From Candidatus Gottesmanbacteria bacterium (lineage in GTDB: Bacteria > Patescibacteriota > Microgenomatia > UBA10105 > UBA927): 64,000 nt of DNA. Under the pieces are notes generated by a model. It ran no database searches and had not been told where the DNA came from. It worked only from the letters and a program-made list of their open reading frames with translations. Position numbers and translations under genes: made by a program. Location of the stretch: positions 619,282 to 683,281 of the forward strand of contig JAHFKK010000001.1 in NCBI GenBank assembly GCA_023245335.1, written 5' to 3'. This document shows, piece after piece, positions 4,900 through 57,751 of this stretch (the first letter of the stretch is position 1; each line of letters opens with the position of its first letter).

Positions 4900-7209
4900 A
4901 TGAAGTATCTAGTGCGGCATTGGGGGGTAGGATTTATTATTGCGGCCTGGCTTCTATTTGCTTCGCCGTATTTTGTGAAAGGTCTGGCCCCGTTTCCGTC
5001 CAAATTTCTAGTGACGTTTTTTGCCCCATGGAGCACTACCTACGCTATGCCGGTAAAAAATGGAGCTATGCCGGACGTCATAACCCAAATATATCCGTGG
5101 AAACGCGTTACTATCGCAAGCTGGAAGTCGGGGCAGGTGCCGTTATGGAATCCGTTTAGCTTTGCCGGCACTGCGCAGGCGGGCAATTACCAGAGCGCGG
5201 TATTTTCTCCGGTTAATGCATTGTTCTTTATATTGCCGGAGATCCCCGCGTGGAGCATCATGATACTTCTGCAACCACTTCTTGCGGGGCTTTTCATGTA
5301 TCTATTCCTTCGTAGTATTTCCCGGTCTCCGGAGGGGAGCGTCATGGGGAGCCTTGCGTTTATGTTTTGCGGATTTATCGTCGTTTGGATGGCATACGGG
5401 ACTTTAGGCTACGCAGCGCTATTCCTGCCACTTGCTTTGTATGCGGTAAACGTCTACGAACAAGGAAAACATCCGTGGGCCGGTCCGCTACTCGCCCTGT
5501 CTATTGGCCTGTCGCTCGTTTCCGGGCACTTCCAAATCAGCCTTTATGTGTTGCTGTTTACGGTGTTATATCTTCTGTTTCGTTCGTTCCAGGCAAAGAA
5601 GGGGATCCGGATTTTTTCCGCAGTATGGTATATAGGTCTGGGATTATTGTTTGCCGCACCCCAGATACTGCCGTCGCTTTCGACATATCTTGCCGCAGTG
5701 CGAAGCAGCATCTTTCAGAAGGGTGAGGTTATACCTTGGCAGTATCTCGTGACGATATTTTCTCCTGATTTTTATGGGAATCCTGTGACGAGAAACGACT
5801 GGTTTGGTCATTATGCAGAATGGGCTATGTTTATCGGTGTTGCACCGCTTATAGCAGTTATCGCTCTGTGGTTTCTTCCGCGAAAAGACAACGCCGTAAA
5901 GTTTTTTAGTCTGACTGCAATTATTCTTTTCCTCTTTGCGTTGCCGACACCGCTCACTGATCTCTTATATGCTGCCCGAATTCCCGTCCTGTCCACGAGT
6001 GCCGCATCGCGCATTATCATTCTTGTAAGTTTCGCATTCGCGGCACTTTCAGCGTACGGAATCGATGCGATACGTACGTCCTGGGAAAAGGACTCGTATA
6101 AACGGATCCTGGGGGCTGTCCTGACAGTCTGCTTTTCCATAGTCGCCGTCTGGGGAGCGCTCAAGTTATTGAAGCCGTTTCCTGCGGAAAAGCTTTCGGT
6201 TGCGATGCATAATACACTCCTGCCCACCTTCATCGCGGTTGTTGCTGTTGCCGCTATTGTGTTGGGGTATTTCGTGCCGAAACGATGGCGCCGGATCTTG
6301 CCGTACGCCCTCATTCTCATAGCGCTTGTCGATCTCCTGCGGTTTGCGGGGAAATGGATGCCGTTTGACCCCAAAGAATATGTGTACCCCAACGTGAACG
6401 TATTGCGGTATGTGTCATCGGTAATAGCCCCAACACACGCACGGGTGAATGGAAACATCGGTAATGAGGTAGCCTCAGCCTTTGGTATACCGGTTTTGGA
6501 AGGCTATGACGCCGTTTATCAGGCGCGGTATGGCAAGTTTATAAGCAGCGCGACCGATGGAAAGATCGCAGTTCTCAATCGCTCCGTCGTACAGCTTGAT
6601 AAACAGGGGAAATACACCGAGGATATACTACGGCTTTTAGGGGTACGGTACCTCATGCATAAAGTAAGTGATGGCAGGAATACATGGGCGTATCCGTTTT
6701 GGAATTTTCCGTCGTATCGTTCGATCTGGAAAGACGCGTCCTATGAAGTTTTTGAAAACGATGCCGCCTACCCCCGCGCATATCTGGCATCGAGCTACAC
6801 TGTGGCGACGCAGGAATTCTCGATTCTTACGAAGTTATTTGCGAAGGATATCGATAGACGGGAGACATTGGTATTGGAAGAAGATCCTGTCATAAAGCCG
6901 GCTACTGGTGCCGGCACGGCTACGATTACGACCTACGAGCCGACACGCGTCGCCGTACGGGTCGTAAGCCAAGCGCCAAAGCTTTTGTTTCTTTCCGATG
7001 TATATGACCCGGGTTGGCATGCGGCAGTTGATGGGAAAGCCGCACCTCTCTATCGGGCGGATTATGATTTTCGTGCCGTATCAGTACCTGCCGGCACGCA
7101 TACGGTAACCATGTGGTATTGGCCGATAGAAGAGACAATTGGGTTCATAGCCGCCGGATTTGCTACACTATGGTGTATAGGAGTATTGTTTAGACGAAAA
7201 CGCATATGA
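4900..7209 (+). CDS. YfhO-family GT-C membrane glycosyltransferase (paralogue 1)
   Basis: 769 aa. The N-terminal half is polytopic and is followed by a large extracytoplasmic domain. The C-terminus 'DPGWHAAVDGKAAPLYRADYDFRAVSVPAGTHTVTMWYWP' and a terminal TM anchor are characteristic of YfhO. Confidence 0.75.
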   Translation: MKYLVRHWGVGFIIAAWLLFASPYFVKGLAPFPSKFLVTFFAPWSTTYAMPVKNGAMPDVITQIYPWKRVTIASWKSGQVPLWNPFSFAGTAQAGNYQSAVFSPVNALFFILPEIPAWSIMILLQPLLAGLFMYLFLRSISRSPEGSVMGSLAFMFCGFIVVWMAYGTLGYAALFLPLALYAVNVYEQGKHPWAGPLLALSIGLSLVSGHFQISLYVLLFTVLYLLFRSFQAKKGIRIFSAVWYIGLGLLFAAPQILPSLSTYLAAVRSSIFQKGEVIPWQYLVTIFSPDFYGNPVTRNDWFGHYAEWAMFIGVAPLIAVIALWFLPRKDNAVKFFSLTAIILFLFALPTPLTDLLYAARIPVLSTSAASRIIILVSFAFAALSAYGIDAIRTSWEKDSYKRILGAVLTVCFSIVAVWGALKLLKPFPAEKLSVAMHNTLLPTFIAVVAVAAIVLGYFVPKRWRRILPYALILIALVDLLRFAGKWMPFDPKEYVYPNVNVLRYVSSVIAPTHARVNGNIGNEVASAFGIPVLEGYDAVYQARYGKFISSATDGKIAVLNRSVVQLDKQGKYTEDILRLLGVRYLMHKVSDGRNTWAYPFWNFPSYRSIWKDASYEVFENDAAYPRAYLASSYTVATQEFSILTKLFAKDIDRRETLVLEEDPVIKPATGAGTATITTYEPTRVAVRVVSQAPKLLFLSDVYDPGWHAAVDGKAAPLYRADYDFRAVSVPAGTHTVTMWYWPIEETIGFIAAGFATLWCIGVLFRRKRI

Positions 7210-8252
7210 AGATCGGCTTATATAATCCATATTATGACGGGTTAGGAGGAGGCGAACGGTATACTCTCACGCTCGCAAGCCATTGGTCACGCGTTCATGA
7301 TGTGTCGCTTTTTTGGGACGACCCGAATATTCTCGCCGTTTCGGAATCAAGGTTCGGTCTTGATCTTTCGCGTGTTCGTGTGACACCGAATGTATTTAAA
7401 AACGGGAATATATTTGAAAAACTCTGGGCCTCACGTAAGTACGACCTCATATTTTTCTTGAGCGACGGAAGCATTCCGATGACGCTCGCCCGGCACAACA
7501 TATTGCATTTCCAGGTGCCGTTTCCGTCTATTCTTACCGACCCGTGGAAAATGGGAAGATATGACGCGGTTATATGTAATTCTCAATTCACCAAAAACGC
7601 CATAGATGCGGAGGTAGGGCTTAAGGCAATGGTCATCTACCCGCCCGTGCCGAGCATAGGGCTACCGAAACAGATTAAGAAAAAGAAACGGATACTTTCC
7701 GTAGGAAGATTCACGAATTATTTTCAGGCAAAGAAGCAGGAAGTGCTCATAGAAGCATTTAAGTCTGTGTATCAGCACAGCACGTTTGCCGATTGGGAGC
7801 TTGTGTTTGCCGGGGGTCTCATGAATTCGGATGAAGAATATTTCGCTAAGCTCAAGACACTTGCCGCCGGTATGCCGATACATTTTCTCCCCAACGTAAC
7901 GAACGATGAATTGACGAAACTGTACCAGACGTCCACGATTTTTTGGCACGCGGCAGGATTCGGAGAAACGAACGCCGTACTTCTCGAGCACTTCGGTATT
8001 GCAACAGTCGAAGCCATGAGCGCGGGTGCGGTTCCTTTGGTTTTTGCAGCGGGCGGACAGCCGGAGATCGTTACCGACGGCGTGAGCGGTGAACTATGGG
8101 CAACGATGAAGGAGCTGGTAGATGGTACTATTTCGCTCGTGACTGACCAGGCAAGACTTTTGAGGCTTCGGAAAGCCGCTATGCTGAGGTCGCAGGCGTT
8201 TAGCATTGAGCGATTCACCCGCGCATTTGACGGACTTATCGCCGGTTGGTAA
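7206..8252 (+). CDS. GT4 (group 1) glycosyltransferase
   Basis: 348 aa with the 'EHFGIATVEAMSAGAVPL' E-x7-E-type GT-B motif. It has an ATGA overlap with the upstream YfhO. Confidence 0.75.
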   Translation: MKIGLYNPYYDGLGGGERYTLTLASHWSRVHDVSLFWDDPNILAVSESRFGLDLSRVRVTPNVFKNGNIFEKLWASRKYDLIFFLSDGSIPMTLARHNILHFQVPFPSILTDPWKMGRYDAVICNSQFTKNAIDAEVGLKAMVIYPPVPSIGLPKQIKKKKRILSVGRFTNYFQAKKQEVLIEAFKSVYQHSTFADWELVFAGGLMNSDEEYFAKLKTLAAGMPIHFLPNVTNDELTKLYQTSTIFWHAAGFGETNAVLLEHFGIATVEAMSAGAVPLVFAAGGQPEIVTDGVSGELWATMKELVDGTISLVTDQARLLRLRKAAMLRSQAFSIERFTRAFDGLIAGW

Positions 8253-8262
8253 TACCACCCAT

Positions 8263-10530
8263 ATGAAGCGAATTGGACTCACCGGATGGCCCCTTCTCCT
8301 CATGACTTTTATACTCGTCACCGTAGTCTTTTTTTATCAGACGTTTTCTAAAGGCTATTTACCTATTCCGACGGACGCGCTTATCGGGTTATATCACCCG
8401 TGGCGGGATGTATATGCGAAGGAGTATCCCAGAGGAGTACCGTTTAAGAATTTTCTTATCACCGATCCCATTCGTCAACAGATACCATGGCGTAAGCTCG
8501 TTATAGATACCTGGAAATCCGGACATACTCCGGGATGGAATCCATATACGTTCGTCGGCGTACCGCTGAACGCAAATATACAGGCAGCACCTTTTTACGC
8601 TCTAAATATACTTTTTTTCTTGTTTACTTTCCCTATAGCATGGACACTCCTTGTCATGGCACAGCCTTTACTCGCCGGACTGTTCCTTTTTTTATACCTT
8701 CGTAATCGACGCTTGAGTCACGTAGCTTCGTTTGTCGGAGGTATAGTGTGGGCGTTTAGCGGATTCTCCGTTGCGTGGATGACGTGGGGCACGATTATGC
8801 AGACGGCTCTTTGGGCGCCTCTCATTCTTCTCTCTTTAGATAATCTTTTGCTTCCGAAAGCGCATAAGCCAGAAAAATCACGGATTATCCTTTGGATGAT
8901 CATTCTGGCCGGAGCGATTGCGATGACAGTCACAGCAGGTCACATTCAAGTAGCCTTATATACAATGACGCTTGCAGCCTTTTATGTCTTCTGGAGTGTG
9001 AAGTCGGAAGGTCGTACTATGGGTGCGCGATGGGTGATTGTTGCTGTCGGAGGAGCCATACTTCTTACTGCGGTACAGTGGATTCCACTCCTGCAATTTT
9101 TGCCGCAAACCGGGAGAGCGGGAGCGGCTGATGCCTGGAAGGTAGCAGGCTGGTTCCTGCCGTGGCAGAACCTTGTTCAATTTGTGGCGCCTGACTTTTT
9201 CGGCAATCCGGCGACGTTAAACTACTGGGGTGTGTGGAACTACGGTGAATTTATAGGCTATATAGGTATCTTGCCGTTGGTTTTTGCTCTTTCTGCGGTG
9301 TTTCTTTCCGGGATACCCATATTTTTTTCCGTCGTCCTATGCGTGAGTTTCTTGTTTATGACTCCAAATCCCGTTTCCGGCATTCCGTTTGTGTTGCATA
9401 TACCATTTCTCTCGATATTGCAGCCGACGCGGCTCATGGCAGTCGTTGACCTGAGTCTCGCGGTACTTGCCGCATACGGACTGGAAGCGATGACAAAACA
9501 CAAAAGTCGCGCGTACGGCGCCTTTGCCGTTGTTGGTTTAGTCATTCTCGGATCGTGGGGAGTCGTTTTGGCAGGAAAATTTATCTCGCACGATCCGACG
9601 GTGTCGGGTAATTTACTCATCACCAGGCACAACCTTGTTTTGCCGACGCTTATATTTGCCGTGGGTCTCCTTTGGTATGCCATTCGGAACTATAGGAACG
9701 TCGTACGATGGCGATTGGCTGGAGAAGTGGCGCTTATCCTGATTGTCATTTTTGATCTTTTTCGTTTCGGATGGAAGTTTACGCCGTTTACTCCGCAAGC
9801 GTATTTTTTCCCGACGACACAAACGATTCAGTATCTACAGCACATACCCAAGCCGTTTCGGGTGATGAGTCTGGATGACCGTATCCTTCCTCCGAACGCC
9901 GGGAGCTATTATGGCATCGAGACCATAGAAGGGTACGATCCAATTGCGCCCAGACTCTACGAAGATTTTCTCGTGGCCTCCGAGCGTGGGAAAGCAGACA
10001 CGAGTCGTCCGACAGGCTTTAACCGGATATATACGGCCCACAACATAGACTCGCCGTTATTACCGTATCTTAACGTCCGTTATGTATTGTCGCTTACCGA
10101 CGTATCAAGGCCTTTTCTTACCAAAGTATATGAGGAAGGAGAGGTCAGAGTCTACGAGTATAAAAAAGCGTTGCCGCGTATATATCTTGCAGAAAGTCTT
10201 ATGCCGAGGAAGAATTCGCAAGACGTGCTACAAACGCTTTTTACCGCATCACCGGGAGCGGTAGGGGTATATGATCCGCTTGTGCCGATCCAGTCACTCC
10301 CGCTTGCCGCAGAGGAAGGCGCGAGGATCACATCCTATCAACCAAACGAAATTCATGTGCGCGTGACGGCGGCGTATCCGAGAGTGTTGATTCTTCTCAA
10401 TGAGTTCGACGCGCATTGGGCTGCAACGATTGATAATGGCGGACCGTTTACCGTGTTTCCGGTGAATTACCTGTTTATGGGCGTGAACATTCCCATGGGT
10501 TCTCATACGGTCGTTTTCACGTACCGATAA
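8263..10530 (+). CDS. YfhO-family GT-C membrane glycosyltransferase (paralogue 2)
   Basis: The track ORF starts at 8206. The Met at 8263 ('MKRIGLTGWPLLL') follows the upstream stop and matches the N-terminal layout of the other YfhO paralogues. The C-terminus 'NEFDAHWAATIDNG...GSHTVVFTY' is the YfhO C-terminal module. Confidence 0.72.
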   Translation: MKRIGLTGWPLLLMTFILVTVVFFYQTFSKGYLPIPTDALIGLYHPWRDVYAKEYPRGVPFKNFLITDPIRQQIPWRKLVIDTWKSGHTPGWNPYTFVGVPLNANIQAAPFYALNILFFLFTFPIAWTLLVMAQPLLAGLFLFLYLRNRRLSHVASFVGGIVWAFSGFSVAWMTWGTIMQTALWAPLILLSLDNLLLPKAHKPEKSRIILWMIILAGAIAMTVTAGHIQVALYTMTLAAFYVFWSVKSEGRTMGARWVIVAVGGAILLTAVQWIPLLQFLPQTGRAGAADAWKVAGWFLPWQNLVQFVAPDFFGNPATLNYWGVWNYGEFIGYIGILPLVFALSAVFLSGIPIFFSVVLCVSFLFMTPNPVSGIPFVLHIPFLSILQPTRLMAVVDLSLAVLAAYGLEAMTKHKSRAYGAFAVVGLVILGSWGVVLAGKFISHDPTVSGNLLITRHNLVLPTLIFAVGLLWYAIRNYRNVVRWRLAGEVALILIVIFDLFRFGWKFTPFTPQAYFFPTTQTIQYLQHIPKPFRVMSLDDRILPPNAGSYYGIETIEGYDPIAPRLYEDFLVASERGKADTSRPTGFNRIYTAHNIDSPLLPYLNVRYVLSLTDVSRPFLTKVYEEGEVRVYEYKKALPRIYLAESLMPRKNSQDVLQTLFTASPGAVGVYDPLVPIQSLPLAAEEGARITSYQPNEIHVRVTAAYPRVLILLNEFDAHWAATIDNGGPFTVFPVNYLFMGVNIPMGSHTVVFTYR

Positions 10531-10543
10531 GGAATGAGATACG

Positions 10544-11518
10544 TTGCTAAGACGACGTATCCATGCTATTGTAAAATACGTTTCTATGGCAAATTCGGCA
10601 AAGAAATCATTTACGGTCAGCGTTATCCTTCCCAACTGGAACGGTGAGCATTTGCTCGCCAAAAACTTACCCAGCGTTTTGGAAGCGGCGCCGACGGCTG
10701 AAATTATTGTGGCCGACGACGCCTCCAAAGATGCATCGGTAGAGCTCCTCCGTAAGAAATTTCCTAGCGTCATCGTTATCGAGAATAAAAGACAACGGGG
10801 TTTTGCAGGAAACGTAAATAGCGGTGTCGCTAGAGCGAAAGGTGACATAGTCGTGCTTCTCAATACCGATGTGCGCCCCAACAAAGGTTTTTTGGAACCG
10901 CTCCTTGCCCGTTTTCTGGATCCGCATGTTGCGGCAGTCGGGTGTCTTGAGGAAAGTCATGACCTGGGGGGGGTCATCCTGCGGGGAAGAGGTGTCGCGC
11001 GGTGGATTAAAGGATATTTTATTCATACAAAGGGCGAGGTCACCAAAAGCGATACTGCTTGGGTAGCCGGAGGGAGCAGTGCGTTTAGAAAAAGCGTATG
11101 GAATGAGTTGGGGGGCATGGATACGATATATAATCCGTTTTATTGGGAAGACATAGACCTTTCATACCAGATGCAGAAAGCCGGACTGCGGATCGTATTT
11201 GAGAGGAAAAGCGTCGTTGGTCACTACCACGAGGAGGGGAAAATTAAAACATCCTTTACGCCCTCCGACATAACGCGTATTGCGTACCGGAATCAATTCA
11301 TATTTCTTTGGAAAAACATATCGGATCCCGGATTGTGGGTCGCTCACTGTGTATGGACGCCGATACGTCTGGTGCAGGCCCTCATACAGGGCGACTTTCT
11401 CATGCTGCAGGGGTATTTTGAGGCAATTATGAAACTACCTGCAGTCTGGCCTTCCCGCAAAAGAGCTTCCCGGCATTGGCGGTTGACCGATGCCGCGACT
11501 CTTCCTCAATCCGACTAA
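10544..11518 (+). CDS. GT2 glycosyltransferase
   Basis: 324 aa with 'FTVSVILPNWNGEHLL', 'VADDASKDAS' and 'WEDIDLSYQ'. An alternative start is the Met at 10586. Confidence 0.7.
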   Translation: MLRRRIHAIVKYVSMANSAKKSFTVSVILPNWNGEHLLAKNLPSVLEAAPTAEIIVADDASKDASVELLRKKFPSVIVIENKRQRGFAGNVNSGVARAKGDIVVLLNTDVRPNKGFLEPLLARFLDPHVAAVGCLEESHDLGGVILRGRGVARWIKGYFIHTKGEVTKSDTAWVAGGSSAFRKSVWNELGGMDTIYNPFYWEDIDLSYQMQKAGLRIVFERKSVVGHYHEEGKIKTSFTPSDITRIAYRNQFIFLWKNISDPGLWVAHCVWTPIRLVQALIQGDFLMLQGYFEAIMKLPAVWPSRKRASRHWRLTDAATLPQSD

Positions 11519-11521
11519 CCT

Positions 11522-12385: not shown

Positions 12386-12400
12386 TATAAGGGAGATCGT

Positions 12401-14300: not shown

Positions 14301-14534
14301 CTACCGTGAGAAAATGGGCGTACTGGGGATCAGCCGGCGATAGATTTCGGCTGTCCCGGTATCGACGACCTCATCCAAATGTTCTAGGCTGCCGCGCTCT
14401 CTATTCAGCAAGTCAATTGCTTTTAGTGAAGCCTGGTTCAGGCTTTCGTGCGCATATTTTCGGGTTTCGTTTTCTTCGACCATATCGTCGCAGTATATCG
14501 CTGTAGTGTCAATTATATAATTTCGCTGAGACAA
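14301..14534 (-). pseudogene. PIN-domain (VapC-like) toxin relic, apparently frameshifted
   Basis: 77 aa ORF 'MSQRNYIIDTTAIY...' resembles a PIN N-terminus ('x-I-I-D-T-x-A-I'). About 50 further codons ('AQKRGLTQDEIDRKF...') continue in another frame down to about 14150, which would restore a typical roughly 130 aa PIN length. No antitoxin ORF is present. Confidence 0.3.
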
Positions 14535-16203: not shown

Positions 16204-16206
16204 AAG

Positions 16207-47558: not shown

Positions 47559-47565
47559 TTTTGTA

Positions 47566-49413: not shown

Positions 49414-49418
49414 CGCTC

Positions 49419-50699: not shown

Positions 50700-50711
50700 A
50701 ATAACAAATAT

Positions 50712-51599
50712 ATGAAGAAAGTTTTTGATTACGAAGAAACATTTATGGGGCTCACACCCGACAGATCCCCAGGTTTGGACAGAAGAATATATCAATACGA
50801 TCATAGGTTTAGGAAATTTGTTGACACCGTAAAATTAGCAAAAGGCAGAATAATCGATGTGGGTTGTGGGGGAGGCTCATTTATAGAAAGTCTGGCTAAT
50901 TATTATCCAAACGTACACATGTACGGCTGTGATATAAGTAAAAAAGCTATTTTTTACGCAAAAAAAACCGGCAGCGGGAAGGTTAACTATGGTGTGATTC
51001 GCAATGGTAAATTTCCTTATAAAGACGATTTTTTTGATGTGTTGATATGCGTAGATGTCTTGGAACATGTTCCGGACGTACATTTTTTTCTTAATGAAGT
51101 CCGGCGAGTGCTTAAGAAGAAAGGATTATTCTACCTGGCGGTTCCTTGTGAAGGAGAACCTCTGACTTATACGTGGTTCTTGCAAAAGATCGGTATCGGA
51201 GACAAACTAACGTTTAAACATTTTGGGCATATTCATCCGGAATTTACGCACCGATTTGTACGTAAACTACTTAACCAGCATAAGCTAAAGATAGTGGATA
51301 CTTCTTACGATATGCACTTTTTATCCCAAGTATTTATGCTGTTGCAATATTTTCTACCTAAGGAATTGCTTAATGTTGTATTGGGCAACAATAGGGCTGC
51401 TAAATACTATGATAAGTCGGTAGTGATAGCTGAAAATCAAAAAAAGCTGCAAAAGGATCCAATTTATATCTTTAGAGAAGTCTGGTTTGGAATTTGGAGG
51501 ATGTTGAGCCCGGTCAGCTTATTTGAATTCATTTTATTTAATAAAGTAAGTATCACAAGCTGGAGATTGCTTGCTCTCTCTCAAAAGCTTGAGAAATAA
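50712..51599 (+). CDS. Class I SAM-dependent methyltransferase
   Basis: 295 aa with motif I 'IIDVGCGGGSFIESL' and 'ICVDVLEHV'. Confidence 0.65.
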   Translation: MKKVFDYEETFMGLTPDRSPGLDRRIYQYDHRFRKFVDTVKLAKGRIIDVGCGGGSFIESLANYYPNVHMYGCDISKKAIFYAKKTGSGKVNYGVIRNGKFPYKDDFFDVLICVDVLEHVPDVHFFLNEVRRVLKKKGLFYLAVPCEGEPLTYTWFLQKIGIGDKLTFKHFGHIHPEFTHRFVRKLLNQHKLKIVDTSYDMHFLSQVFMLLQYFLPKELLNVVLGNNRAAKYYDKSVVIAENQKKLQKDPIYIFREVWFGIWRMLSPVSLFEFILFNKVSITSWRLLALSQKLEK

Positions 51600-51613: not shown

Positions 51614-54600
51614 ATGATTAAATATTGGACCAAATATAAAGAAATTTTCTTCCTTCTACTGATAAGTTTAATTCCCCTTTTGTGGTATGGGACCGGATCC
51701 CACCAGCTCATATTTAGTAATGACGTCGGTTATAATTTAAACCCGGTCGGATTATTCAAATCTAAATTGTTCGCGTGGGAAAGCACATTGAATTTCGGCT
51801 CCACCCAGGCGGAATTAACTGGTTTCATTCCCAATTTCAGTATAGAGGCTCTTCTGACGTTATTAAGTCATTCCGTTTTTAACGCTCAAAAAATATACGT
51901 CGTAAGTTGGTTTTTCACAATTATGATTGTCATGTATTGGTTTGTGAAAAAGATTCCGGTGTTTGCCAACAAACCCTATATGGCGTTTATGGCGGCTGTG
52001 CTCTTCGGTATAAATCATTTTCAGCTTTACGCCTGGAGAATATTTTGGAGAGGCTTATTTTCAACCTATGTGACCCTGCCGATATTTTTTATTTTATTGA
52101 CTGAATATTTTGAGGAGAGAAGAAGTCTTATACGGACGTCAATTTTTATTTCGCTTACATTATTTTTATTTAACGGCGGTGGATCTCCTCCGACATTTGG
52201 TGCCCTTATTTTATTGGTGCTGACTCTAGTTTTGTACTATTTCCTTTCCGGATTATTGCATAAGAGTGCTATACATTTCCTGAAGAAATGTACACTTCTT
52301 TTCATTGTCGCCGGGCTGTTCACGTTTTTAATTTCCTCATATTGGTTACTTCCATACATTTATTACGCGAAAAATTCTTATTCAACGATTGTTAGCGGGA
52401 TCGGGGGCGTGTTGCAGACACTGGCCTGGACTGACGTTGTGAGCGCTAACACGAGCATTTTAAATCTATTGAGAGCGAGCGGTACTGCTTTATGGGGTGC
52501 GGATGTGGCAGGATATGCACAGGTTTATTCTCAGAACCCGTTTTTCATTATTCTAAGCTATCTGGCGCCGGTATTAGCGCTGTCAGCAATTATCGTAGCC
52601 AAAAAAAGCAGCGAGAGGAAATACATTTATATATTTTCCGTATTTGTAGTCATTGCTGTGCTTTTTTCCGCCGGAACGCATGCTCCGTTGAGAGGATTTT
52701 ATGTGTTTTTACTGAAAACAATACCTGGGTATGTTATTTTTCGGTCTCCGATTTGGAAATTCGGCGGGTTATTATGGTTTTCATATGCAGTTTTAATCTC
52801 ATTTACTATTAGCACCTTCAAAGAACGGATATACGCGTATTCTGATCGAATGAAGGAGGTGAAAAAATTGATTTCACATCTCATTCCCGTAATGTTTCTA
52901 GTAATAGTTTTTGGCTACAATTTTCCATTTTTCAATGGAAATTTTTATAAGTGGAATGTGGGATTAGATATTATGGAGGAAATCCCCCAGTATGTTTTGG
53001 ATTTTGGAAAGTGGGTAGATACAAATCTAAATGACGACTCAAGAACATTACTTTTGCCCGATTTGAATACTAATTGGAGAGCTGAGGCGTATAAGTGGGG
53101 TTATTGGAGTTTAGGTCCTGCGACTTATTACGTAACAACGAAGAATACTCTCACAAACGAATCTAGCCTGATTAATAAAGAACCGCCAATAGTAGATAGT
53201 TTATATGCTGCGTTACGAAACAATGACCCCATCTGGCTAAATTTGGCTAAATTACTGAATGTCCGGTACCTGCTTTTACAAAACGATTTTTTTTACAATT
53301 TAAGTTGGCAACCTACCACACCCCCGTCGGTTTATAAGAGTATTCTCACAAACAGTAAGGACGTAGCACCGCTACAGACATTTGCCGAATGGGAATTATA
53401 TAAAGTAACGGGTAATACAACGCCGATTATATATACACCGACGGTACTAAATTTCGCCGGAACGGACGGGACTGCAATAAAAGACATATTGGAAATTAAT
53501 AGCAATAGGAGCCTTAGCGCAAGGCCGCTTATCGTATTCTTGGATGACTCCATAACAGACAAAGTGAAAAACAATCTTCCTGAGGGAAATAATGTAATAA
53601 TTCAGGCCAAGTGCGTATTGTGTAAACCTGAAGAAATTACTAGCGTGACAAATAGCATCTTTTCAGAAATACCCTATGCAAGTTTACTTCCCGATTCAGT
53701 CTTTTATTTTTATATTTCATGGAAGGAAGATAGGATGCTCAAAAATACCAGTAACTTTGCCGACCAAAGAATCGATGTCGACTTAGCCCTTGCGGACAAG
53801 CGTCTGTCAGAAATAAATCAGTTAATAAGCAGGAAGGATAGATCAGGATCGAACGATTTAATTAAACTTACCGCTCAGAGATATAGTAATTTACTTGCAG
53901 ATATTATGCGTCAGCAAACGAACCTTTCAGAAAGTGCAAGAAATGACTATCTTGTTCGTATTTTGGAATACCTAGAAGCGCAAAGAAGATATATACGTGA
54001 GATTAGTGATCAAAACATGATTTCTAAATTGATACCGGATCTATCATATTCTATTTTAAGGGCGACACAGGAAATTAAAACAAATGTATGGATGACAAAT
54101 GAGGAGAATGACCAAAAGTTTACCGTTAACTTAGACAAGGCTGATAATTATTCCTTAACTATCTCGAACAATAAGGGCAAGCAGACAAGCGTTTTTATCG
54201 ACGGCAATCGACAAACCGCCGAAGATACTGTTTTTTTAACGCAGGGTGTTCATCAGGTGGAATTAAGGAGTCCCAATGATAATCTGGTTGATAGTCAGCA
54301 CGCAACATCTAGCGGTCAATATGATCTCAACTATGGGGAAAAAGTAAGTTTCCCCGTTTCGGGATTCTCCGGTCAAAATACTTATCAAATCAAGTTTAAT
54401 TATAGAATCATTCAGGGAAAAGCTCCGAGTGTCATTCTTCACCAGGACAATGATGAGAAAAGTATCGGGACGGATTTGTCATCCGATAACAGTCTGAAAG
54501 ATGATGGAAAGTGGAATAATTTTACAAAGGTTTTTTCATCTAATGTAGATGCAAAATCTGGCGTTATAGATATTATAAAAATGGGTTTTGATAACAGCGA

Positions 54601-55141
54601 AAGTATATTTGAAATTAGTAATCTGACCGTTAATGAAATGGTAACGCCGCAATTGCTTTTCGTTCGAAAATCAGGTGGGTCTAGTCTTTATGCTCCACGA
54701 ATCACTTTCCAAAAACTTAGCCCAATCAGATATAGAGTCCATGTCGAAAACGCCACAGCTCCATATTTCTTAAATTTTGGCGAGCAGTTTGACAGGTCTT
54801 GGGAGATATATATGAAGAACTCTCAACCCCTCTCTCTGAGGGACGGTCATTTTACCTCGTATTTTAATGGTGATGTTAAAGAAATACGTCCGCAAAATAT
54901 TTTTCTTGACAGAGAACTTTTTACCGATGTGATGTCGAAAGCATCAGGCGGAAATTTTCATTTCCAGACCAACGGATTTGGTAACGGTTGGTACATTACT
55001 AAAATAGGAACCTATGACATAAGTATTGTGTATTGGCCTCAAGTATTTTATTATTTTGGCATTATTATTTCCGGAATAATACTTTTAATAAGTCTCGCGA
55101 TTTTATTTAAACTAAACAAATTAAATGATAAACAAAATTAA
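51614..55141 (+). CDS. Giant integral membrane protein (1175 aa): polytopic N-terminal domain, about 700 aa extracytoplasmic region, C-terminal TM anchor; putative GT-C-like enzyme of unassigned family
   Basis: Long uninterrupted ORF. About 12 N-terminal TM helices are followed by a large hydrophilic region. The C-terminal 'GTYDISIVYWPQ' plus the TM 'YYFGIIISGIILLISLAILF' echoes the YfhO C-terminal module. Confidence 0.6.
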   Translation: MIKYWTKYKEIFFLLLISLIPLLWYGTGSHQLIFSNDVGYNLNPVGLFKSKLFAWESTLNFGSTQAELTGFIPNFSIEALLTLLSHSVFNAQKIYVVSWFFTIMIVMYWFVKKIPVFANKPYMAFMAAVLFGINHFQLYAWRIFWRGLFSTYVTLPIFFILLTEYFEERRSLIRTSIFISLTLFLFNGGGSPPTFGALILLVLTLVLYYFLSGLLHKSAIHFLKKCTLLFIVAGLFTFLISSYWLLPYIYYAKNSYSTIVSGIGGVLQTLAWTDVVSANTSILNLLRASGTALWGADVAGYAQVYSQNPFFIILSYLAPVLALSAIIVAKKSSERKYIYIFSVFVVIAVLFSAGTHAPLRGFYVFLLKTIPGYVIFRSPIWKFGGLLWFSYAVLISFTISTFKERIYAYSDRMKEVKKLISHLIPVMFLVIVFGYNFPFFNGNFYKWNVGLDIMEEIPQYVLDFGKWVDTNLNDDSRTLLLPDLNTNWRAEAYKWGYWSLGPATYYVTTKNTLTNESSLINKEPPIVDSLYAALRNNDPIWLNLAKLLNVRYLLLQNDFFYNLSWQPTTPPSVYKSILTNSKDVAPLQTFAEWELYKVTGNTTPIIYTPTVLNFAGTDGTAIKDILEINSNRSLSARPLIVFLDDSITDKVKNNLPEGNNVIIQAKCVLCKPEEITSVTNSIFSEIPYASLLPDSVFYFYISWKEDRMLKNTSNFADQRIDVDLALADKRLSEINQLISRKDRSGSNDLIKLTAQRYSNLLADIMRQQTNLSESARNDYLVRILEYLEAQRRYIREISDQNMISKLIPDLSYSILRATQEIKTNVWMTNEENDQKFTVNLDKADNYSLTISNNKGKQTSVFIDGNRQTAEDTVFLTQGVHQVELRSPNDNLVDSQHATSSGQYDLNYGEKVSFPVSGFSGQNTYQIKFNYRIIQGKAPSVILHQDNDEKSIGTDLSSDNSLKDDGKWNNFTKVFSSNVDAKSGVIDIIKMGFDNSESIFEISNLTVNEMVTPQLLFVRKSGGSSLYAPRITFQKLSPIRYRVHVENATAPYFLNFGEQFDRSWEIYMKNSQPLSLRDGHFTSYFNGDVKEIRPQNIFLDRELFTDVMSKASGGNFHFQTNGFGNGWYITKIGTYDISIVYWPQVFYYFGIIISGIILLISLAILFKLNKLNDKQN

Positions 55142-55493
55142 TACATCATATAAACACGTCCTAGCGTATCTTGATACGTATCATGTTAAGTTTATATTTA
55201 TTATATTGAGCGTGTTAATGTTGGACGCGGTATATAAAATACCATACATTAATATTTTTTTCTCTCAGGAGCTGTTTTTTTTGCTCGAGTGGATCATTAT
55301 CATTAATGTATTAGAATTTTCTCATAATGTCTCGTTCTATATGGCTCTATTACTATTGGGTTTTGCCATGTTACTTATGATTACAAAAAGTGATCAGACC
55401 GCCGAAAAAATGGGGAATTTTGCTTTTATCGTATTTACGGTCGGCCTCGGGCAGGCTATTTGGTCTAATTTAAGAAAGGCTCCGGTGCTGTAA
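55125..55493 (+). CDS. Small hypothetical membrane protein (about 3 TM)
   Basis: 122 aa, hydrophobic. It overlaps the stop of the giant protein by 17 nt. No recognisable motif. Confidence 0.35.
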   Translation: MINKINTSYKHVLAYLDTYHVKFIFIILSVLMLDAVYKIPYINIFFSQELFFLLEWIIIINVLEFSHNVSFYMALLLLGFAMLLMITKSDQTAEKMGNFAFIVFTVGLGQAIWSNLRKAPVL

Positions 55494-55690: not shown

Positions 55691-57751
55691 ATGAATCTGG
55701 TTATGAAAAAATTGTTATTAGTTTCAATATTTATTTTAGGTTTTCTTTTCCTGTTTTCTGGGATGGGCGTACACACGTCAGGAGATTGGCTATACCTGTA
55801 TCCGGAAACGGCAAAACAATTTTTGTTGACTCCAACGGTTTGGACATCACACTCCGGTCTGCTCGGAGGAGCGAACCTTTTTGTTACCGGGTTAGATTGG
55901 CTTTATAGTGCCTCCTCGAAAATTTTCCTCGTAGACCTTCATTTATCATGGTCTTTAATTGAACGATTACTTTGGTTTCTTCCGTTGTGGCTAATTGGGG
56001 CTGTCGGATCTGTCCGGTTCAGTAATAGGTTCAGTTCATCAGTCTTTGTATATCTTAGTTTACTATTTGTGTTTAACACGTATTTTCTTATGATTACCGG
56101 GGGAGGTCAGATGGGTGTGGCCTGGGGTTATGCGCTCGTACCGTGGGTATTAGACGGATTCTTTAATTTGTTCGATGCGCTTCGGATCAATTTGAAACAT
56201 TTATGGCACAAAACATATTTGGTGGCGATCGTATTTGGTATACAATTATTTTTTGATGCACGGATGGCGTACCTGACGCTGTTCGTAGTCGGTCTATATC
56301 TCATCTGGTTATTTGTAATTCGGGAGGCAGATAGATCTTTTCTCCTGCGTTGCTTGATAAGTTCTTTTATATTTGCGATTTCTGTTATCGGATTACATGC
56401 TTTTTGGCTGCTCCCGTTTATAAAATTTCCGGTTTCAATATCAGAATCGCTGGGTTCTGTATATACTTCTATAGATGCAGTTAAATTCTTCAGTTTTGCG
56501 GACTTTTCTCATGCGCTATCTCTCTTACATCCAAATTGGCCGGAAGATATTTTTGGAAAAACGTACTTTCTGCAGCCCGAGTTTCTTCTTCTTCCAATAA
56601 TTGCGTTTTCAGCTCTTTTATTTATTCGTGATAATTCCAAGGATAAGTGGCAGGAAATACAGATTCGTTTCTTCGCGATTCTCGCTATAGTCGGAGCCTT
56701 TTTGGCAAAAGGTACAAATCCACCGTTTGGCGGCCTATATGTATGGCTCTTTAACAGTATCCCGGGATTTGTCATGTTTCGAGACCCGACGAAGTTTTAT
56801 CTATTTATAGCCTTATCCTACTCAGTATTAATACCGTATGCATGTGCGCATATAAGTCAGGTAGTTTACACAGCCCTGAAACGCTCTGGTACACACATTC
56901 CGTTGCGAGTTCTGGCGGTTGGCGTTTTCGCCTTCTTTATCATAGGTTGGTCATATTTGCATAGAGAGTTATTACTTGGACGGCTTGGAGGTACGTTTAG
57001 ATCACAGGTTGTTCCGGTGGAATATATCCAACTGAAAGATTTTTTGACAGCAGATCTATCATACAAGCGTGTATTATGGGTGCCCTCAAAAAGCAGATTT
57101 GGGTTTTATTCTGATGATAAACCGGGTATATCGCTTCAAGCTATCAACGTAGCGAGCTCATCGTCGTTTATTTCCTGGATATCCGATCAGAAGCATGATG
57201 AAGAGCTTGCAAGGTATTCGGTTGCGTATATCGTTGTGCCGACGGATCCGCAGTCGGAATTATTTGTTAGTGATCGGAAATATGATCGTCAACTTCGGTT
57301 GTCAGTAATAAAGGCAATAGACGCGACCGGGAGATTCACACGCGTTACTTCGATACCTGACATTGCGGTTTACAAATCGAATAAATATTATGGGCACGCG
57401 TTTTGGGCTAATGATCCCAACATACCTGTCGTAATCAATCGTATAGAACCGACACATTACACGGTATCCATACCAAATCACAAGTCCTTAGAAGATTTAA
57501 TATTTTCCGAGTCGTTCGATCCTTACTGGGAGTTAATTATCAATGGTACTCGGATACGCCCGGTAAAAACAGTAGATGGTCTTCAGCAATATCGCCTTCA
57601 GGGCGGTGTGTATGGCCAGGCGATTATATATTACCGACCGCAGGGTTTTGAGTCCGTCGGGTTATGGATTTCAGGCATCACTCTTTTGACCATTGTCGTA
57701 TGGATTGGGTATGATAGTGTTATCTTATGGCACAAAAAGCGTGCGTCGTGA
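55691..57751 (+). CDS. Large integral membrane protein (686 aa) with C-terminal extracytoplasmic domain and terminal TM anchor; putative GT-C-like
   Basis: The N-terminal loop is loosely similar to that of the 1175 aa protein. The C-terminus 'GGVYGQAIIYYRPQ' is followed by the TM 'LWISGITLLTIVVWIG'. A roughly 200 nt AT-rich gap lies upstream. Confidence 0.55.
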   Translation: MNLVMKKLLLVSIFILGFLFLFSGMGVHTSGDWLYLYPETAKQFLLTPTVWTSHSGLLGGANLFVTGLDWLYSASSKIFLVDLHLSWSLIERLLWFLPLWLIGAVGSVRFSNRFSSSVFVYLSLLFVFNTYFLMITGGGQMGVAWGYALVPWVLDGFFNLFDALRINLKHLWHKTYLVAIVFGIQLFFDARMAYLTLFVVGLYLIWLFVIREADRSFLLRCLISSFIFAISVIGLHAFWLLPFIKFPVSISESLGSVYTSIDAVKFFSFADFSHALSLLHPNWPEDIFGKTYFLQPEFLLLPIIAFSALLFIRDNSKDKWQEIQIRFFAILAIVGAFLAKGTNPPFGGLYVWLFNSIPGFVMFRDPTKFYLFIALSYSVLIPYACAHISQVVYTALKRSGTHIPLRVLAVGVFAFFIIGWSYLHRELLLGRLGGTFRSQVVPVEYIQLKDFLTADLSYKRVLWVPSKSRFGFYSDDKPGISLQAINVASSSSFISWISDQKHDEELARYSVAYIVVPTDPQSELFVSDRKYDRQLRLSVIKAIDATGRFTRVTSIPDIAVYKSNKYYGHAFWANDPNIPVVINRIEPTHYTVSIPNHKSLEDLIFSESFDPYWELIINGTRIRPVKTVDGLQQYRLQGGVYGQAIIYYRPQGFESVGLWISGITLLTIVVWIGYDSVILWHKKRAS

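Follow-up and report, generated by a model that had tools for sequence, protein, structure and literature searches.

A conserved array of GT-C-type membrane proteins in Candidatus Gottesmanbacteria that probably builds a complex surface glycan

Introduction

GtrABV, CsbB-GtcA-YfhO and ArnC-ArnEF-ArnT are three-component systems for extracytoplasmic glycosylation, in which a synthase, a flippase and a GT-C transferase act together. YfhO proteins are the GT-C components of known systems of this kind. For protein O-glycosylation, the comparison systems are fungal PMT1-7, human TMTC1-4 and S. mutans PgfM1/M2. Here we describe a locus of Candidatus Gottesmanbacteria (CPR/Patescibacteria), a groundwater bacterium with a tiny genome of about 1.2 Mb, in which these three ingredients are all encoded, as a preliminary description of the DNA had indicated. 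The literature that we searched contained no account of this array. Our model is that the GT-Cs of the array probably make a surface sugar polymer of unusual complexity on the outside of the cell membrane.

Results

A dense array of GT-C-type proteins

The window is the whole 64-kb stretch of DNA that was analysed. It contains most of a GT-C locus that spans at least 74 kb, and the longest contig bearing array genes is 1.22 Mb. Five more GT-Cs lie just outside the window in the upstream flank, together with two more DPM1-like synthases, one of which is fused to GtrA_DPMS_TM, and a large polytopic gene is found downstream. The preliminary description had pointed to a high concentration of GT-Cs (about 17) between positions 4900 and 57751. 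This was borne out and proved to be an undercount: 18 of 18 large polytopic ORFs were present in this interval, each with 7-12 TM segments by crude Kyte-Doolittle prediction, and every one had some GT-C evidence. The 18 GT-C genes cover 61% of positions 4900-57751 and 81% of positions 4900-37989. The number of GT-C-like genes around YfhO homologues was 9-12 per 22 kb in Gottesmanbacteria loci, whereas it was 0-2 in non-CPR phyla.

HMM searches of the membrane ORFs indicated GT-C-type proteins rather than transporters. Pfam assignments were made at or above the gathering score, which 12 of the 18 proteins passed (YfhO, three; PMT_2, seven; GT87, one; PTPS_related, one); structure models covered two of the 18. 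The 18 proteins are thus predicted GT-C-type enzymes, with evidence that varies in strength from protein to protein. Those outside the PMT_2-like group, and one small gene lying among them, are as follows.

4900-7209, plus strand: YfhO-family GT-C, 769 aa, about 12 TM segments and a C-terminal TM segment (Pfam YfhO, 91 bits)
8206-10530, plus strand: YfhO-family GT-C, 774 aa (755 aa as called; Pfam YfhO, 65 bits)
12401-14131, plus strand: GT-C, 576 aa, ALG12/ALG3-like fold, from a family without a Pfam model and recovered mostly from CPR
17837-20191, minus strand: YfhO-family GT-C, 784 aa (Pfam YfhO, 86.7 bits)
20195-21922, minus strand: PTPS_related-type GT-C, 542 aa as called (20195-21823), a clear paralogue of 32246-33883
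23383-24645, plus strand: GT87/MptA_B-like GT-C, 420 aa (Pfam GT87, 28.2 bits; precomputed annotation MptA_B_family)
32246-33883, plus strand: PTPS_related GT-C, 545 aa (Pfam PTPS_related, 46.8 bits)
36907-37989, plus strand: PIG-V-like (GT76-type) GT-C, 360 aa, by family membership
51614-55141, plus strand: AftD-like GT-C, 1175 aa, with an N-terminal TM module, a predicted extracytoplasmic region of ~700 aa and a C-terminal TM segment
55125-55493, plus strand: small membrane protein, 122 aa, about 4 TM segments, between the two AftD-like genes
55691-57751, plus strand: AftD-like GT-C, 686 aa

The 4900-7209 protein shares 31-32% identity with each of its two YfhO paralogues in all-vs-all BLAST, and the first-loop motif TDPxRQQIPW is kept in the 8206-10530 protein and eight orthologues. 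The 20195-21922 protein had no Pfam match; in BLAST it was 32% identical to the 32246-33883 protein over 525 aa (E 4e-79), and the D of its "HD" motif is invariant. The 36907-37989 protein scored 23.8 bits against Pfam GT87, under the cut-off of 25, and 15 of its 33 relatives matched PF04188 Mannosyl_trans2 (PIG-V), with a best E of 7e-15; the "NFDG" motif is invariant in this family. For the AftD-like pair, hhalign matched the family profile of the 686-aa protein to residues 20-408 of the 1175-aa protein at 98.3% probability (E 1.4e-14). The latter also has a weak DUF5667 match. In one relative (L071) its orthologue has 1155 aa, and the 122-aa gene has a counterpart in the equivalent position between the AftD-like genes (27% identity, E 8e-7).

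PMT_2-like proteins and the question of protein O-glycosylation

The remaining GT-Cs resemble PMT_2 proteins.

14509-16203, minus strand: PMT_2-like GT-C, group A, 564 aa (Pfam PMT_2, 34 bits)
16207-17844, minus strand: PMT_2-like GT-C, group A, 545 aa (Pfam PMT_2, 39 bits; PMT, 31 bits)
21822-23333, plus strand: PMT_2-like GT-C, group B, "GDQG" loop-1 motif (Pfam PMT_2, 39.5 bits)
24642-26306, plus strand: PMT_2-like GT-C, group A, 554 aa (Pfam PMT_2, 39.4 bits)
26309-27988, plus strand: PMT_2-like GT-C, group A, 559 aa (Pfam PMT_2, 26.9 bits against a cut-off of 26.1, borderline)
29085-30749, plus strand: PMT_2-like GT-C, group A (Pfam PMT_2, 31.3 bits)
30763-32241, plus strand: PMT_2-like GT-C, group B, "DQG" (Pfam PMT_2, 32 bits)
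34656-35822, plus strand: short PMT_2-like GT-C, 388 aa, invariant "PDE" loop-1 motif (transitive homology)

The loop-1 "DE" motif is invariant in the 14509-16203 and 16207-17844 proteins, and FLGDQGRT is invariant in the 21822-23333 protein and 11 orthologues. By BLAST, the group A proteins 24642-26306 and 26309-27988 are 31% identical and the two group B proteins 25%. Placement of the 388-aa protein in the PMT_2-like family is the weakest of the 18 assignments and would follow by transitive homology only: the protein itself had no Pfam match, five of its 26 relatives matched PMT_2 (best E 2.7e-9), D71 is invariant in its family, and hhalign against the group A profile gave a weak match (31% probability). 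The earlier label "GT39/PMT-like" holds at the superfamily level and not beyond it, since PMT_2 scores of 27-40 bits are close to the threshold and a profile of the five group A paralogues and their orthologues did not retrieve any PMT or ArnT of solved structure by sequence.

To attach to hosts, CPR cells depend on surface proteins and pili. One could therefore propose that the locus serves mainly protein O-glycosylation, with PMT_2 and YfhO paralogues of different protein or sequon specificities acting on the S-layer, pilin or adhesin proteins of the epibiont. PMT/PMT_2 matches carrying the canonical loop-1 "DE" motif are consistent with this proposal, as are weak NCBIfam matches, which link the C-terminal parts of YfhO proteins with PgfM1/PgfM2 and the 106-852 GT2 with PgfS. 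However, the PMT scores are marginal, the Pfam search found no PMT_4TMC or MIR domain, and the 84 kb comprising the window and its flanks encode no candidate acceptor protein. In addition, ALG12/ALG3-, PIG-V-, GT87/MptA- and AftD-like members typify elongation of glycans or glycolipids rather than transfer to protein. We consider a primary role in protein O-glycosylation improbable.

Few synthases and flippases accompany the array

The window also encodes DPM1-like GT2 proteins and two flippases.

106-852, plus strand: DPM1-like GT2 (polyprenyl-phosphate-sugar synthase type), 248 aa, soluble
839-2287, plus strand: Wzx/MOP-family flippase, 482 aa, 12 TM segments (Pfam Polysacc_synt_3, 183 bits)
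37994-38710, plus strand: DPM1-like GT2, 238 aa
38671-39966, plus strand: Wzx-like MOP flippase, 431 aa, 10 predicted TM segments (Pfam Polysacc_synt, 52 bits)
39923-40750, plus strand: probable DPM1-like GT2, 275 aa (weaker ArnC/PpgS-like match)

The best PDB match of the 106-852 protein was the P. furiosus Dol-P-Man synthase 5mlz (E 1e-13), followed by ArnC and GtrB, and the DxD ("DIDL") and "IAIGSR" motifs are conserved in the alignment with 5mlz. Its full-length NCBIfam matches (PgfS, Dol-P-hexose transferase, ArnC, PpgS and AglJ) were all under the equivalog cut-offs. For the 37994-38710 protein, 5mlz was again the best PDB match (E 1.6e-16, residues 4-230), with ArnC at E 7e-12, and NCBIfam gave AglJ (95 bits), Dol-P-hexose transferase, PpgS and ArnC. 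The 39923-40750 protein, 32% identical to the previous one by BLAST, matched NCBIfam ArnC and PpgS over its full length and PDB ArnC over the N-terminal half only (E 6e-6). The presence of polyprenyl-phosphate-sugar synthase types was thus confirmed, as were the two Wzx-like flippases. The 839-2287 flippase also matched the NCBIfam MOP flippase (130 bits) and O-glycosylation flippase (93 bits) models, both below cut-off, and the 38671-39966 flippase sits between two DPM1-like genes. There is precedent for a MOP-family protein as the flippase for a polyprenyl-P-monosaccharide (PMC11127046). Interleaving of DPM1-like GT2 genes with the array applies to three of the ten GT2 genes in the window (five DPM1-like genes with the upstream flank) and not to the other seven.

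The preliminary description had proposed that three-component logic is repeated many times in parallel, so that many independent systems would each attach their own sugar to envelope polymers or proteins made beforehand. All of the component types are present, YfhO proteins among them, and the sub-cluster at 37994-40750 (synthase, MOP flippase, synthase), which adjoins GT-C genes, resembles such a unit. The proportions do not fit: the synthase:flippase:GT-C ratio is about 3:2:18 in the window and, with the flank, 5:2 plus one GtrA domain:23, figures that further synthases or flippases encoded in the remaining genome could shift. Moreover, no stand-alone GtrA/GtcA gene was found in the window by Pfam. 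With about three synthases and two flippases for 18 GT-Cs, most GT-Cs would lack a private synthase and flippase, which favours a scheme where a small number of lipid-sugar donors serves a long series of GT-C reactions. We regard parallel decoration as unlikely.

Leloir, sugar-nucleotide and tailoring genes

The GT-Cs occur in tightly packed co-directional runs with 10 GT2s, 6-7 GT4s, 8 SDR sugar enzymes, 5 methyltransferases and 1 acetyltransferase.

2020-4890, plus strand: three ordinary GT2 (GT-A) genes, 2284-3192 (as called), 3228-4145 and 4123-4890 (Pfam Glycos_transf_2)
7206-8252, plus strand: GT4 (GT-B) glycosyltransferase (Pfam Glycos_transf_1, 85.6 bits)
10544-12385, plus strand: GT2 (10544-11518), then SAM methyltransferase (11522-12385; Pfam)
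27997-29058, plus strand: NAD-dependent sugar epimerase/dehydratase (Pfam Epimerase, 138.6 bits)
33865-34638, plus strand: ordinary GT2 (Pfam, NCBIfam)
35868-36932, plus strand: GT4 glycosyltransferase (Pfam Glycos_transf_1, 90.9 bits)
40798-43760, plus strand: sugar 4,6-dehydratase/epimerase, GT4 and GT2 (Pfam)
43400-51599, plus strand: low-GC (0.32-0.44) sugar-nucleotide/tailoring cassette (composition, Pfam, NCBIfam)
57727-63076, plus strand: epimerase, GalE, stand-alone GT4 N-terminal half, full GT4, hexapeptide acetyltransferase and GT2 (Pfam)
63051-64000, plus strand: very large polytopic membrane protein, start only, unassigned

The seven remaining GT2s and the GT4s are predicted to be ordinary cytoplasmic Leloir enzymes; the GT2s at 2020-4890 matched MftF-like, rhamnosyltransferase and SunS-like NCBIfam models and are not DPM1-like. 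The GT2-methyltransferase pair at 10544-12385 keeps its position in relatives at 58-80% identity. The NCBIfam dTDP-glucose dehydratase model gave the dehydratase in 40798-43760 a score below its cut-off (207 bits), and GalE, with 404.8 bits, exceeded its cut-off of 262.3. Gene order in 57727-63076 is kept in L071. The polytopic protein that begins at 63051 had no match in the Pfam search and shares 38% identity with its positional counterpart in L071 over 715 aa; it reaches at least 658 aa in L066 and at least 941 aa with 21 TM segments in another relative. Neither an initiating phosphoglycosyltransferase (WecA/WbaP type) nor a polymerase/ligase was identified in the window by Pfam.

The GT-C set is old and fixed

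The 17837-20191 YfhO protein was used as the query that retrieved syntenic Gottesmanbacteria loci. In at least 10 related Gottesmanbacteria-type MAGs, synteny is kept and the array genes have one-to-one orthologues. All-vs-all BLAST reproduced the sub-grouping of the preliminary description (three YfhO, two PTPS, five PMT-like, two "DQG", GT87 and PIG-V-like), yet its phrase "paralogue expansion" was misleading. GT-C paralogues are 25-34% identical to one another, whereas positional orthologues are mostly 45-83% identical (36-41% for the exception, the orthologue of 29085-30749), pointing to an ancient, fixed and non-redundant enzyme set. This pattern would imply long-standing, distinct and selected functions. 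Strict one-to-one orthology across species also favours a fixed pathway over the interchangeable decorations of many independent systems.

The acidic loop-1 motifs (DE, PDE, DQG, HD, DxxxQxxPW and GDW) are invariant in orthologues. Because the N-terminal tails of the GT-Cs are short and net positive, the positive-inside rule places loop 1 outside; this outcome of the crude topology prediction agrees with the extracytoplasmic position expected earlier, and the GT-C steps would then face outwards.

Parts of the locus do vary. Horizontal acquisition is suggested by a low-GC island of 14 kb (43.4-57.2 kb), where GC is 0.32-0.44 compared with about 0.49. Its cassette at 43400-51599 contains three epimerase/reductases (one GDP-fucose-synthase-like), three methyltransferases and two GT4s, and L071 has other genes in its place; the sugar-nucleotide genes adjoining the AftD-like pair differ among relatives. 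In relatives L070, L068 and L007/L009, the central part of the array includes additional GT-C genes or lacks some. These features would suit a diversity-generating surface-variation locus, in which redundant GT-Cs are gained, lost and exchanged for antigen variation and escape from phage or host recognition. However, the core of at least 12 GT-C genes holds its order and orthology across MAGs at 45-65% protein identity, the catalytic motifs are invariant, and the variability appears confined to one cassette. We therefore find a surface-variation locus very unlikely.

Discussion

On balance, we favour a model in which the locus makes an elaborate envelope glycoconjugate, or a few of them, mostly at the outer surface of the cytoplasmic membrane. 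We infer the donors, acceptor and order of steps as follows. Sugar-nucleotide enzymes (GalE, dehydratases, reductases, methyl- and acetyltransferases) would supply the donors. Cytoplasmic GT2 and GT4 Leloir enzymes would assemble a lipid-linked primer, to be exported via a Wzx-type flippase. The few DPM1-like GT2s would load single sugars onto polyprenyl phosphate; flipping of these lipid-sugars could fall to the second MOP protein, to the GtrA domain of the fusion synthase encoded just upstream, or to both. Drawing on these few donors, the 18 non-redundant GT-Cs (at least 23 with the flank) would each be responsible for one particular residue or linkage, jointly elongating and branching the glycan or passing it to a final acceptor.

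The proposed logic is like that of mycobacterial lipomannan, LAM and arabinogalactan, for which PimE, MptA-C, Emb and AftA-D draw on only PPM and DPA. The sequential use of GT-Cs would likewise resemble the ER-lumenal ALG3/9/12/6/8/10 steps and the PIG-M/V/B steps of GPI.

GT-C proteins of the window

The 64-kb window is coding almost throughout and consists of three runs of tightly packed or overlapping genes:

106-14131, + strand, first run
14509-21922, - strand, second run
21822-64000, + strand, third run

The membrane inventory comprises 18 large polytopic proteins and two Wzx/MOP flippases. Beside these the window encodes ten GT2 and six or seven GT4 glycosyltransferases, eight SDR-type epimerases or dehydratases, five SAM methyltransferases and one hexapeptide acetyltransferase. 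A Pfam scan of about 50 window ORFs revealed no other transporter family, no phage gene and no initiating phosphoglycosyltransferase, and an STT3/PglB oligosaccharyltransferase was not detected in the window. GalE was the sole NCBIfam model passed at its cut-off, and the NCBIfam models gave no identity for the sugars used. The evidence throughout is computational, and the sequences are MAGs or metagenome contigs.

The preliminary description had counted about 17 GT-C-type glycosyltransferases between 4900 and 57751. This count was correct, as we now find 18, all with 7-12 hydrophobic segments according to a crude transmembrane (TM) prediction. Twelve of the 18 were at or above the Pfam gathering thresholds for GT-C families:

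YfhO, three proteins, 65-91 bits
PMT_2, seven proteins, 27-40 bits, near threshold
GT87, one protein, 28 bits
PTPS_related, one protein, 47 bits

The individual scores of the YfhO proteins against PF09586 were 91, 65 and 87 bits, compared with a cut-off of 28.5. All-vs-all BLAST of the set also recovered the subgroups originally proposed. Identities were 30-32% within the YfhO trio, 28-34% among the five PMT_2 proteins of group A, 25% between the two of group B and 32% within the PTPS_related pair. It is this last identity to a PTPS_related paralogue that places the Pfam-negative 20195-21922 (-) among the GT-C proteins. The 1175-aa (51614-55141) and 686-aa (55691-57751) proteins were linked in the same comparison. 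GT-C genes fill 61% of the interval 4900-57751 and 81% of 4900-37989. As polytopic proteins with an N-terminal multi-TM GT-C module, the set belongs to the GT-C superfamily at the level of fold. Transferase activity is predicted, and a polyprenyl-phosphate-linked sugar made by the DPM1-like synthases encoded in the locus is the predicted donor. An identity as transporters or other non-glycosyltransferases was rejected: the only transporter-type families found were those of the two Wzx proteins, and stray matches were trivial (MmpA, 21.7 bits; holin and Sec61beta, E ~0.2).

One label had to be withdrawn. The 'GT39/PMT-like' proteins are not GT39 PMTs in the strict sense: PF02366 (PMT) scored 31 bits in one protein and 20 bits, under the cut-off, in another, the PMT_4TMC module is absent from the PMT_2-like proteins of the window according to Pfam, and a profile of the five group A paralogues with their orthologues retrieved no solved PMT or ArnT from the PDB sequences at E<=0.1. 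The PMT_2 matches themselves reached only 27-40 bits. We filed this set as PMT_2/ArnT-like GT-C proteins.

Proteins with weak or no Pfam matches

In the 1175-aa protein, the first 400 residues aligned with the profile of the 686-aa family (hhalign 98.3%, E 1e-14); an extensive non-membrane region and a TM helix at the C-terminus recall the layout of AftD. Both proteins may be AftD-like in fold and layout, with a GT-C module, an extensive outer domain and a C-terminal TM (reference family PF11847), and structural alignments with the mycobacterial enzymes show 9-14% sequence identity. Structural models cover two of the 18 proteins. In the case of the 576-aa protein (12401-14131), the family profile gave a 3% hhalign probability against the PMT_2 group and no hits in the PDB. 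As these sequence-profile links failed, a fold search was needed, in which the top structural matches of the model were ALG12 and ALG3. At least two families, the 576-aa and the 686/1175-aa, lack a Pfam assignment and have confident GT-C models; both were recovered mostly from CPR bacteria.

The 360-aa protein (36907-37989) scored 23.8 bits with GT87, under the cut-off, and no PF04188 match of its own was reported above cut-off. Among its close relatives (33-45% identical), 15 of 33 match PF04188 (PIG-V/GT76) with a best E of 7e-15, and the profile of this PIG-V-like family retrieved nothing from the PDB sequences. For the 388-aa protein (34656-35822), PMT_2 matches were obtained with five of 26 relatives (best E 3e-9), and hhalign of its family against PMT_2 group A gave a probability of 31%, which is suggestive only. 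A PMT_2-like GT-C is the probable identity of this protein, and the weakest assignment of the set. Its homologues (the window protein and P0004-P0016) fall into two length classes of ~375 aa and ~560 aa, the longer form sometimes carrying a DUF5667 domain. A weak DUF5667 match was also present in the 1175-aa protein, and a separate 148-aa DUF5667 gene lies just upstream in the related contig L068. DUF5667 could recur in these GT-C proteins as an accessory domain on the outer face.

Catalytic motifs and topology

Every GT-C group contains an acidic motif in the first loop, 5-70 residues past TM1, that is invariant among orthologues:

PMT_2 group A, loop 1, 'DE'
388-aa family, loop 1, 'PDE'
PMT_2 group B, loop 1, 'GDQG'
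PTPS_related, loop 1, 'HD'
YfhO, loop 1, 'D..RQ..PW'
576-aa family, loop 1, 'YPDEFDS'
686-aa family, loop 1, 'GDW'

The N-terminal tails are short with a summed net charge of +49, whereas the 25 residues past TM1 sum to -3. Since the tails are net positive, the positive-inside rule would place loop 1 on the extracytoplasmic side, as in solved GT-C structures.

Synthases, flippases and their stoichiometry

DPM1-like GT2 enzymes had been described as interleaved with the GT-C genes. This held for three of the ten window GT2s, the third being a probable case, whereas the other seven are ordinary Leloir GT-A-like enzymes according to NCBIfam. The best PDB match of 106-852 and 37994-38710 was the P. 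furiosus Dol-P-Man synthase 5mlz (E 1e-13 and 2e-16, respectively), followed by ArnC and GtrB. The 5mlz matches span most or all of the catalytic domain, and the DxD and 'IAIGSR' motifs of 106-852 aligned with 5mlz. On this basis both are predicted DPMS/ArnC/GtrB-type synthases, and 39923-40750, a weaker ArnC/PpgS-like paralogue, is probably another.

Both of the proposed Wzx-like flippases scored above the Pfam cut-offs (839-2287, 183 bits and 12 TM; 38671-39966, 52 bits and 10 TM), and the second is flanked on either side by a DPM1-like gene. For a three-component system, experiments have identified a MOP-superfamily protein as the flippase of the polyprenyl-P-monosaccharide (Kelly et al. 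2024, PMC11127046). By analogy with this precedent, it is plausible that the MOP protein between the two synthases flips a polyprenyl-P-monosaccharide. A stand-alone GtrA/GtcA gene was not found in the window.

Inspection of the 10 kb upstream of the window (L063) revealed five further GT-C-like proteins (two PMT_2, one MptA_B/GT87 and two PTPS_related), an epimerase and one more DPM1-like GT2, together with two other genes:

L063:319-1428, + strand, GT2 fused to GtrA_DPMS_TM, 369 aa, the sole GtrA-type module observed in the vicinity of the locus
L063:4921-5142, - strand, PQ-loop protein, 73 aa, two to three TM, weak PF04193 match, ~5 kb upstream of window position 1

The fusion has the classic architecture of a membrane-anchored Dol-P-Man synthase. 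The 73-aa gene sits amid GT-C and DPM1-like genes. MPDU1, the eukaryotic Dol-P-Man utilisation factor, is a PQ-loop protein, and by analogy the 73-aa protein could be a lipid-sugar handling or flipping factor, or merely a SemiSWEET-like sugar transporter.

The preliminary description envisaged the three-component logic of synthase, flippase and GT-C many times in parallel. Many parallel 1:1:1 systems do not fit the ratio in the window, which is 3 synthases to 2 MOP flippases to 18 GT-C proteins. Including the upstream flank raises the totals to 5 synthases and 23 GT-C proteins, with 2 flippases and a single GtrA domain, a stoichiometry that covers window and flank and that genes elsewhere in the genome could shift.

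Extent and conservation of the locus

The window genes are also present on a 311-kb metagenome contig (ENA ERZ27279942), and the same genes lie on a contig of 1,218,111 bp. At the right end of the window, a very large membrane protein begins:

63051-64000, continued in the downstream contig L066:10842-12815, + strand, start of a very large polytopic protein; relative at L071:19108-21932

This protein reaches at least 658 aa here; in the relative it extends to at least 941 aa, for which 21 TM are predicted, and its place at the locus end is conserved. Judged by eye, one region resembles an O-antigen ligase or polymerase, and what resembles a second GT-C-like module ('FIGDDFTW') comes after it. 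We did not adopt the ligase identity, which is a resemblance by eye in a protein that has no Pfam match at E<=5.

Relatives were retrieved with the YfhO protein 17837-20191 (-) as query against GTDB species genomes. The best were 58-63% identical and came from Gottesmanbacteria/Patescibacteria MAGs, and in at least 10 MAGs the 22 kb around the match keeps the gene order of window 7-31 kb. The middle and right parts of the window are likewise syntenic in the related contigs L068, L070 and L071. Every GT-C of the window is matched by a positional orthologue of its own, in most cases 45-83% identical (only 36-41% for 29085-30749), with a few lineage-specific insertions or losses of membrane genes. 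For 36907-37989 the true orthologue in L068 is 16041-17081, and an MptA_B-like gene of that contig was rejected. A looser version of the array occurs in a Levyibacteriota MAG (L021), whereas in non-CPR YfhO loci (Chloroflexota, Planctomycetota, Actinomycetota and others) a stretch of 22 kb contains just 0-2 GT-C-like genes. Counted without reference to homology, large polytopic ORFs have a median density of 4.0 per 10 kb in the CPR loci, compared with 1.3 in the non-CPR loci. This combination of synteny, positional orthologues and low density elsewhere argues that the array is an ancient lineage trait of Gottesmanbacteria-type CPR bacteria in which each member is maintained. Recent tandem duplication, the alternative origin for such an array, is ruled out by the identity of the paralogues, which is merely 25-34%.

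The arrays of some relatives include extra large polytopic genes, at L007:15531-17492 and L009:15383-17449 (653-688 aa) and as insertions of 544, 415 and 519 aa at L070:12791-17232, the 519-aa protein being 32% identical to the PTPS_related 32246-33883. As BLAST matched most of the inserted genes to nothing in the window set, the clade as a whole has a larger GT-C repertoire than any single genome. Several records titled 'uncultured Gammaproteobacteria bacterium' (L002, L006, L010, L013-L016, L020 and L023) contain the same syntenic array, with 35-63% identity to the query; these titles of TPA records are probably placeholder or erroneous labels.

A low-GC cassette and the right-end genes

Between ~43.4 and 57.2 kb the GC content falls to 0.32-0.44, compared with ~0.49 elsewhere, defining a 14-kb island. 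There are no tRNA genes in the window and so no integration-site mark for the island. The cassette contains epimerase/reductases (one GDP-fucose-synthase-like at 302 bits, under the cut-off), three methyltransferases, two GT4 genes and the AftD-like pair, with a small membrane protein between the pair:

55125-55493, + strand, 122-aa membrane protein, ~4 TM, overlapping the end of the 1175-aa gene and preceding the 686-aa gene

L071 has a 122-aa gene at the same position (27% identity, E 8e-7), and the protein may assist the two AftD-like proteins as an accessory subunit. Relatives keep the unit '~1155 aa / 122 aa / ~643 aa / epimerase', whereas the sugar-nucleotide genes ahead of it differ (DegT aminotransferase, FdtA and others). 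As these genes vary while the AftD-like unit stays, the data suggest that the island is a horizontally exchanged, serotype-like module within an otherwise fixed locus.

Two GT4 genes lie further downstream:

59840-60454, + strand, stand-alone GT4 N-terminal half (Glyco_transf_4 only), 204 aa as ORF and 194 aa as called
60458-61588, + strand, complete GT4, directly downstream of the half

The same arrangement is kept in L071 (178 aa and 362 aa), which argues against a fresh pseudogene; the half may be a split or auxiliary GT-B subunit.

A proposed pathway

We propose that a lipid-linked primer would be assembled in the cytoplasm and flipped, after which the GT-C proteins would extend it outside, with few lipid-monosaccharide donors feeding many linkage-specific GT-C proteins in sequence. 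A cytoplasmic primer is suggested because Leloir glycosyltransferases and sugar-nucleotide enzymes share gene runs with the GT-C genes. Few donors and many linkage-specific GT-C proteins acting in sequence are also characteristic of mycobacterial LM, LAM and arabinogalactan synthesis and of the ER-lumenal ALG and GPI pathways, and by analogy the stoichiometry of the locus fits such pathways. Some of the PMT_2 or YfhO members may carry out protein O-glycosylation, which may coexist with the proposed pathway.

A more ambitious version of the sequential pathway, which we regard as unlikely, is a bacterial counterpart of the ER-lumenal and mycobacterial systems in one operon-like super-locus, in which at least 23 linkage-specific GT-C proteins, with new lipid-sugar accessory factors, assemble a lipoglycan or wall glycan of defined, highly branched structure. 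This glycan would serve as the main polymer of the envelope and mediate episymbiosis. The enzymes of the super-locus would be the ALG12/ALG3-like, PIG-V-like, MptA-like, AftD-like and YfhO proteins and the Pfam-less, mostly-CPR family; its accessory factors would be the MOP protein between the synthases, the upstream PQ-loop mini-protein and the 122-aa membrane protein.

The components belong to known superfamilies, and biochemically the locus follows the known logic of extracytoplasmic glycosylation from polyprenyl-phosphate sugars. Three features appear to be new: a single conserved locus gathers at least 23 distinct GT-C genes, its host is a CPR bacterium whose genome measures ~1.2 Mb, and GT-C folds are confidently modelled for two abundant, mostly-CPR families without Pfam assignment. 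We found no description of GT-C arrays in CPR bacteria in the literature searched, the coverage of which is incomplete, so that an earlier mention elsewhere is possible. CPR bacteria have minimal genomes and do not make many basic metabolites; here a single glycan-assembly locus takes at least 74 kb, or ~6% of the genome. This suggests that a surface glycoconjugate of complex structure has gone unrecognised, one that is likely to be central to the integrity of the envelope or to attachment to a host. The locus also supplies candidate lipid-sugar flippase and accessory proteins, and it is a compact, syntenic natural 'parts list' for studying diversification of GT-C specificity.

Comparison with known systems

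Three-component systems (GtrA/GtrB/GtrV; CsbB/GtcA/YfhO; ArnC/ArnEF/ArnT; PPPRS/MATE/GT136, PMC11127046) share their parts with the window, namely a DPM1-like GT2, a flippase and a GT-C, and the flippase of the window is MOP-type as in the GT136 system. However, the window is far from 1:1:1 and has no stand-alone GtrA/GtcA. As it includes a full set of Leloir glycosyltransferases and sugar-nucleotide enzymes, the locus exceeds a decoration add-on. The Pgf cluster of Streptococcus mutans (PgfS, PgfM1, PgfE and PgfM2) unites a GT2 synthase and an epimerase with two GT-C proteins of the YfhO type in a single operon. NCBIfam matches of the window to PgfS, PgfM1 and PgfM2 were weak (24-49 bits, compared with equivalog cut-offs of 500-1500), and the window has 18 or more GT-C proteins to the two of the Pgf cluster.

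The eukaryotic ER-lumenal ALG (ALG3/9/12/6/8/10), GPI (PIG-M/V/B/Z) and PMT enzymes perform sequential GT-C steps with Dol-P-Man or Dol-P-Glc from DPM1/ALG5-type GT2s. The modelled 576-aa protein resembles ALG12/ALG3 structurally, relatives of the 360-aa protein match PF04188, and the locus has a GT-C total similar to that of an entire eukaryotic cell; however, the membrane is a bacterial plasma membrane and the kinship is at the fold or superfamily level only. In mycobacterial and corynebacterial LM-LAM-arabinogalactan synthesis (PimE, MptA/B/C, EmbA/B/C, AftA/B/C/D, Ppm1 and DPA), a glycan outside the membrane is lengthened and branched by many different GT-C proteins that draw on a very small set of polyprenyl-phosphate-sugar donors. 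The window resembles this system in its AftD-like 686-aa and 1175-aa proteins, its GT87/MptA_B-like members and its soluble DPM1-like synthases, which are similar to Ppm1. Genes of the DPA (decaprenyl-phosphoarabinose) pathway were not seen, and the window adds YfhO, PTPS_related, PIG-V-like and Pfam-less proteins. It also belongs to another phylum, and its genes form one syntenic locus whereas those of the mycobacterial system are scattered.
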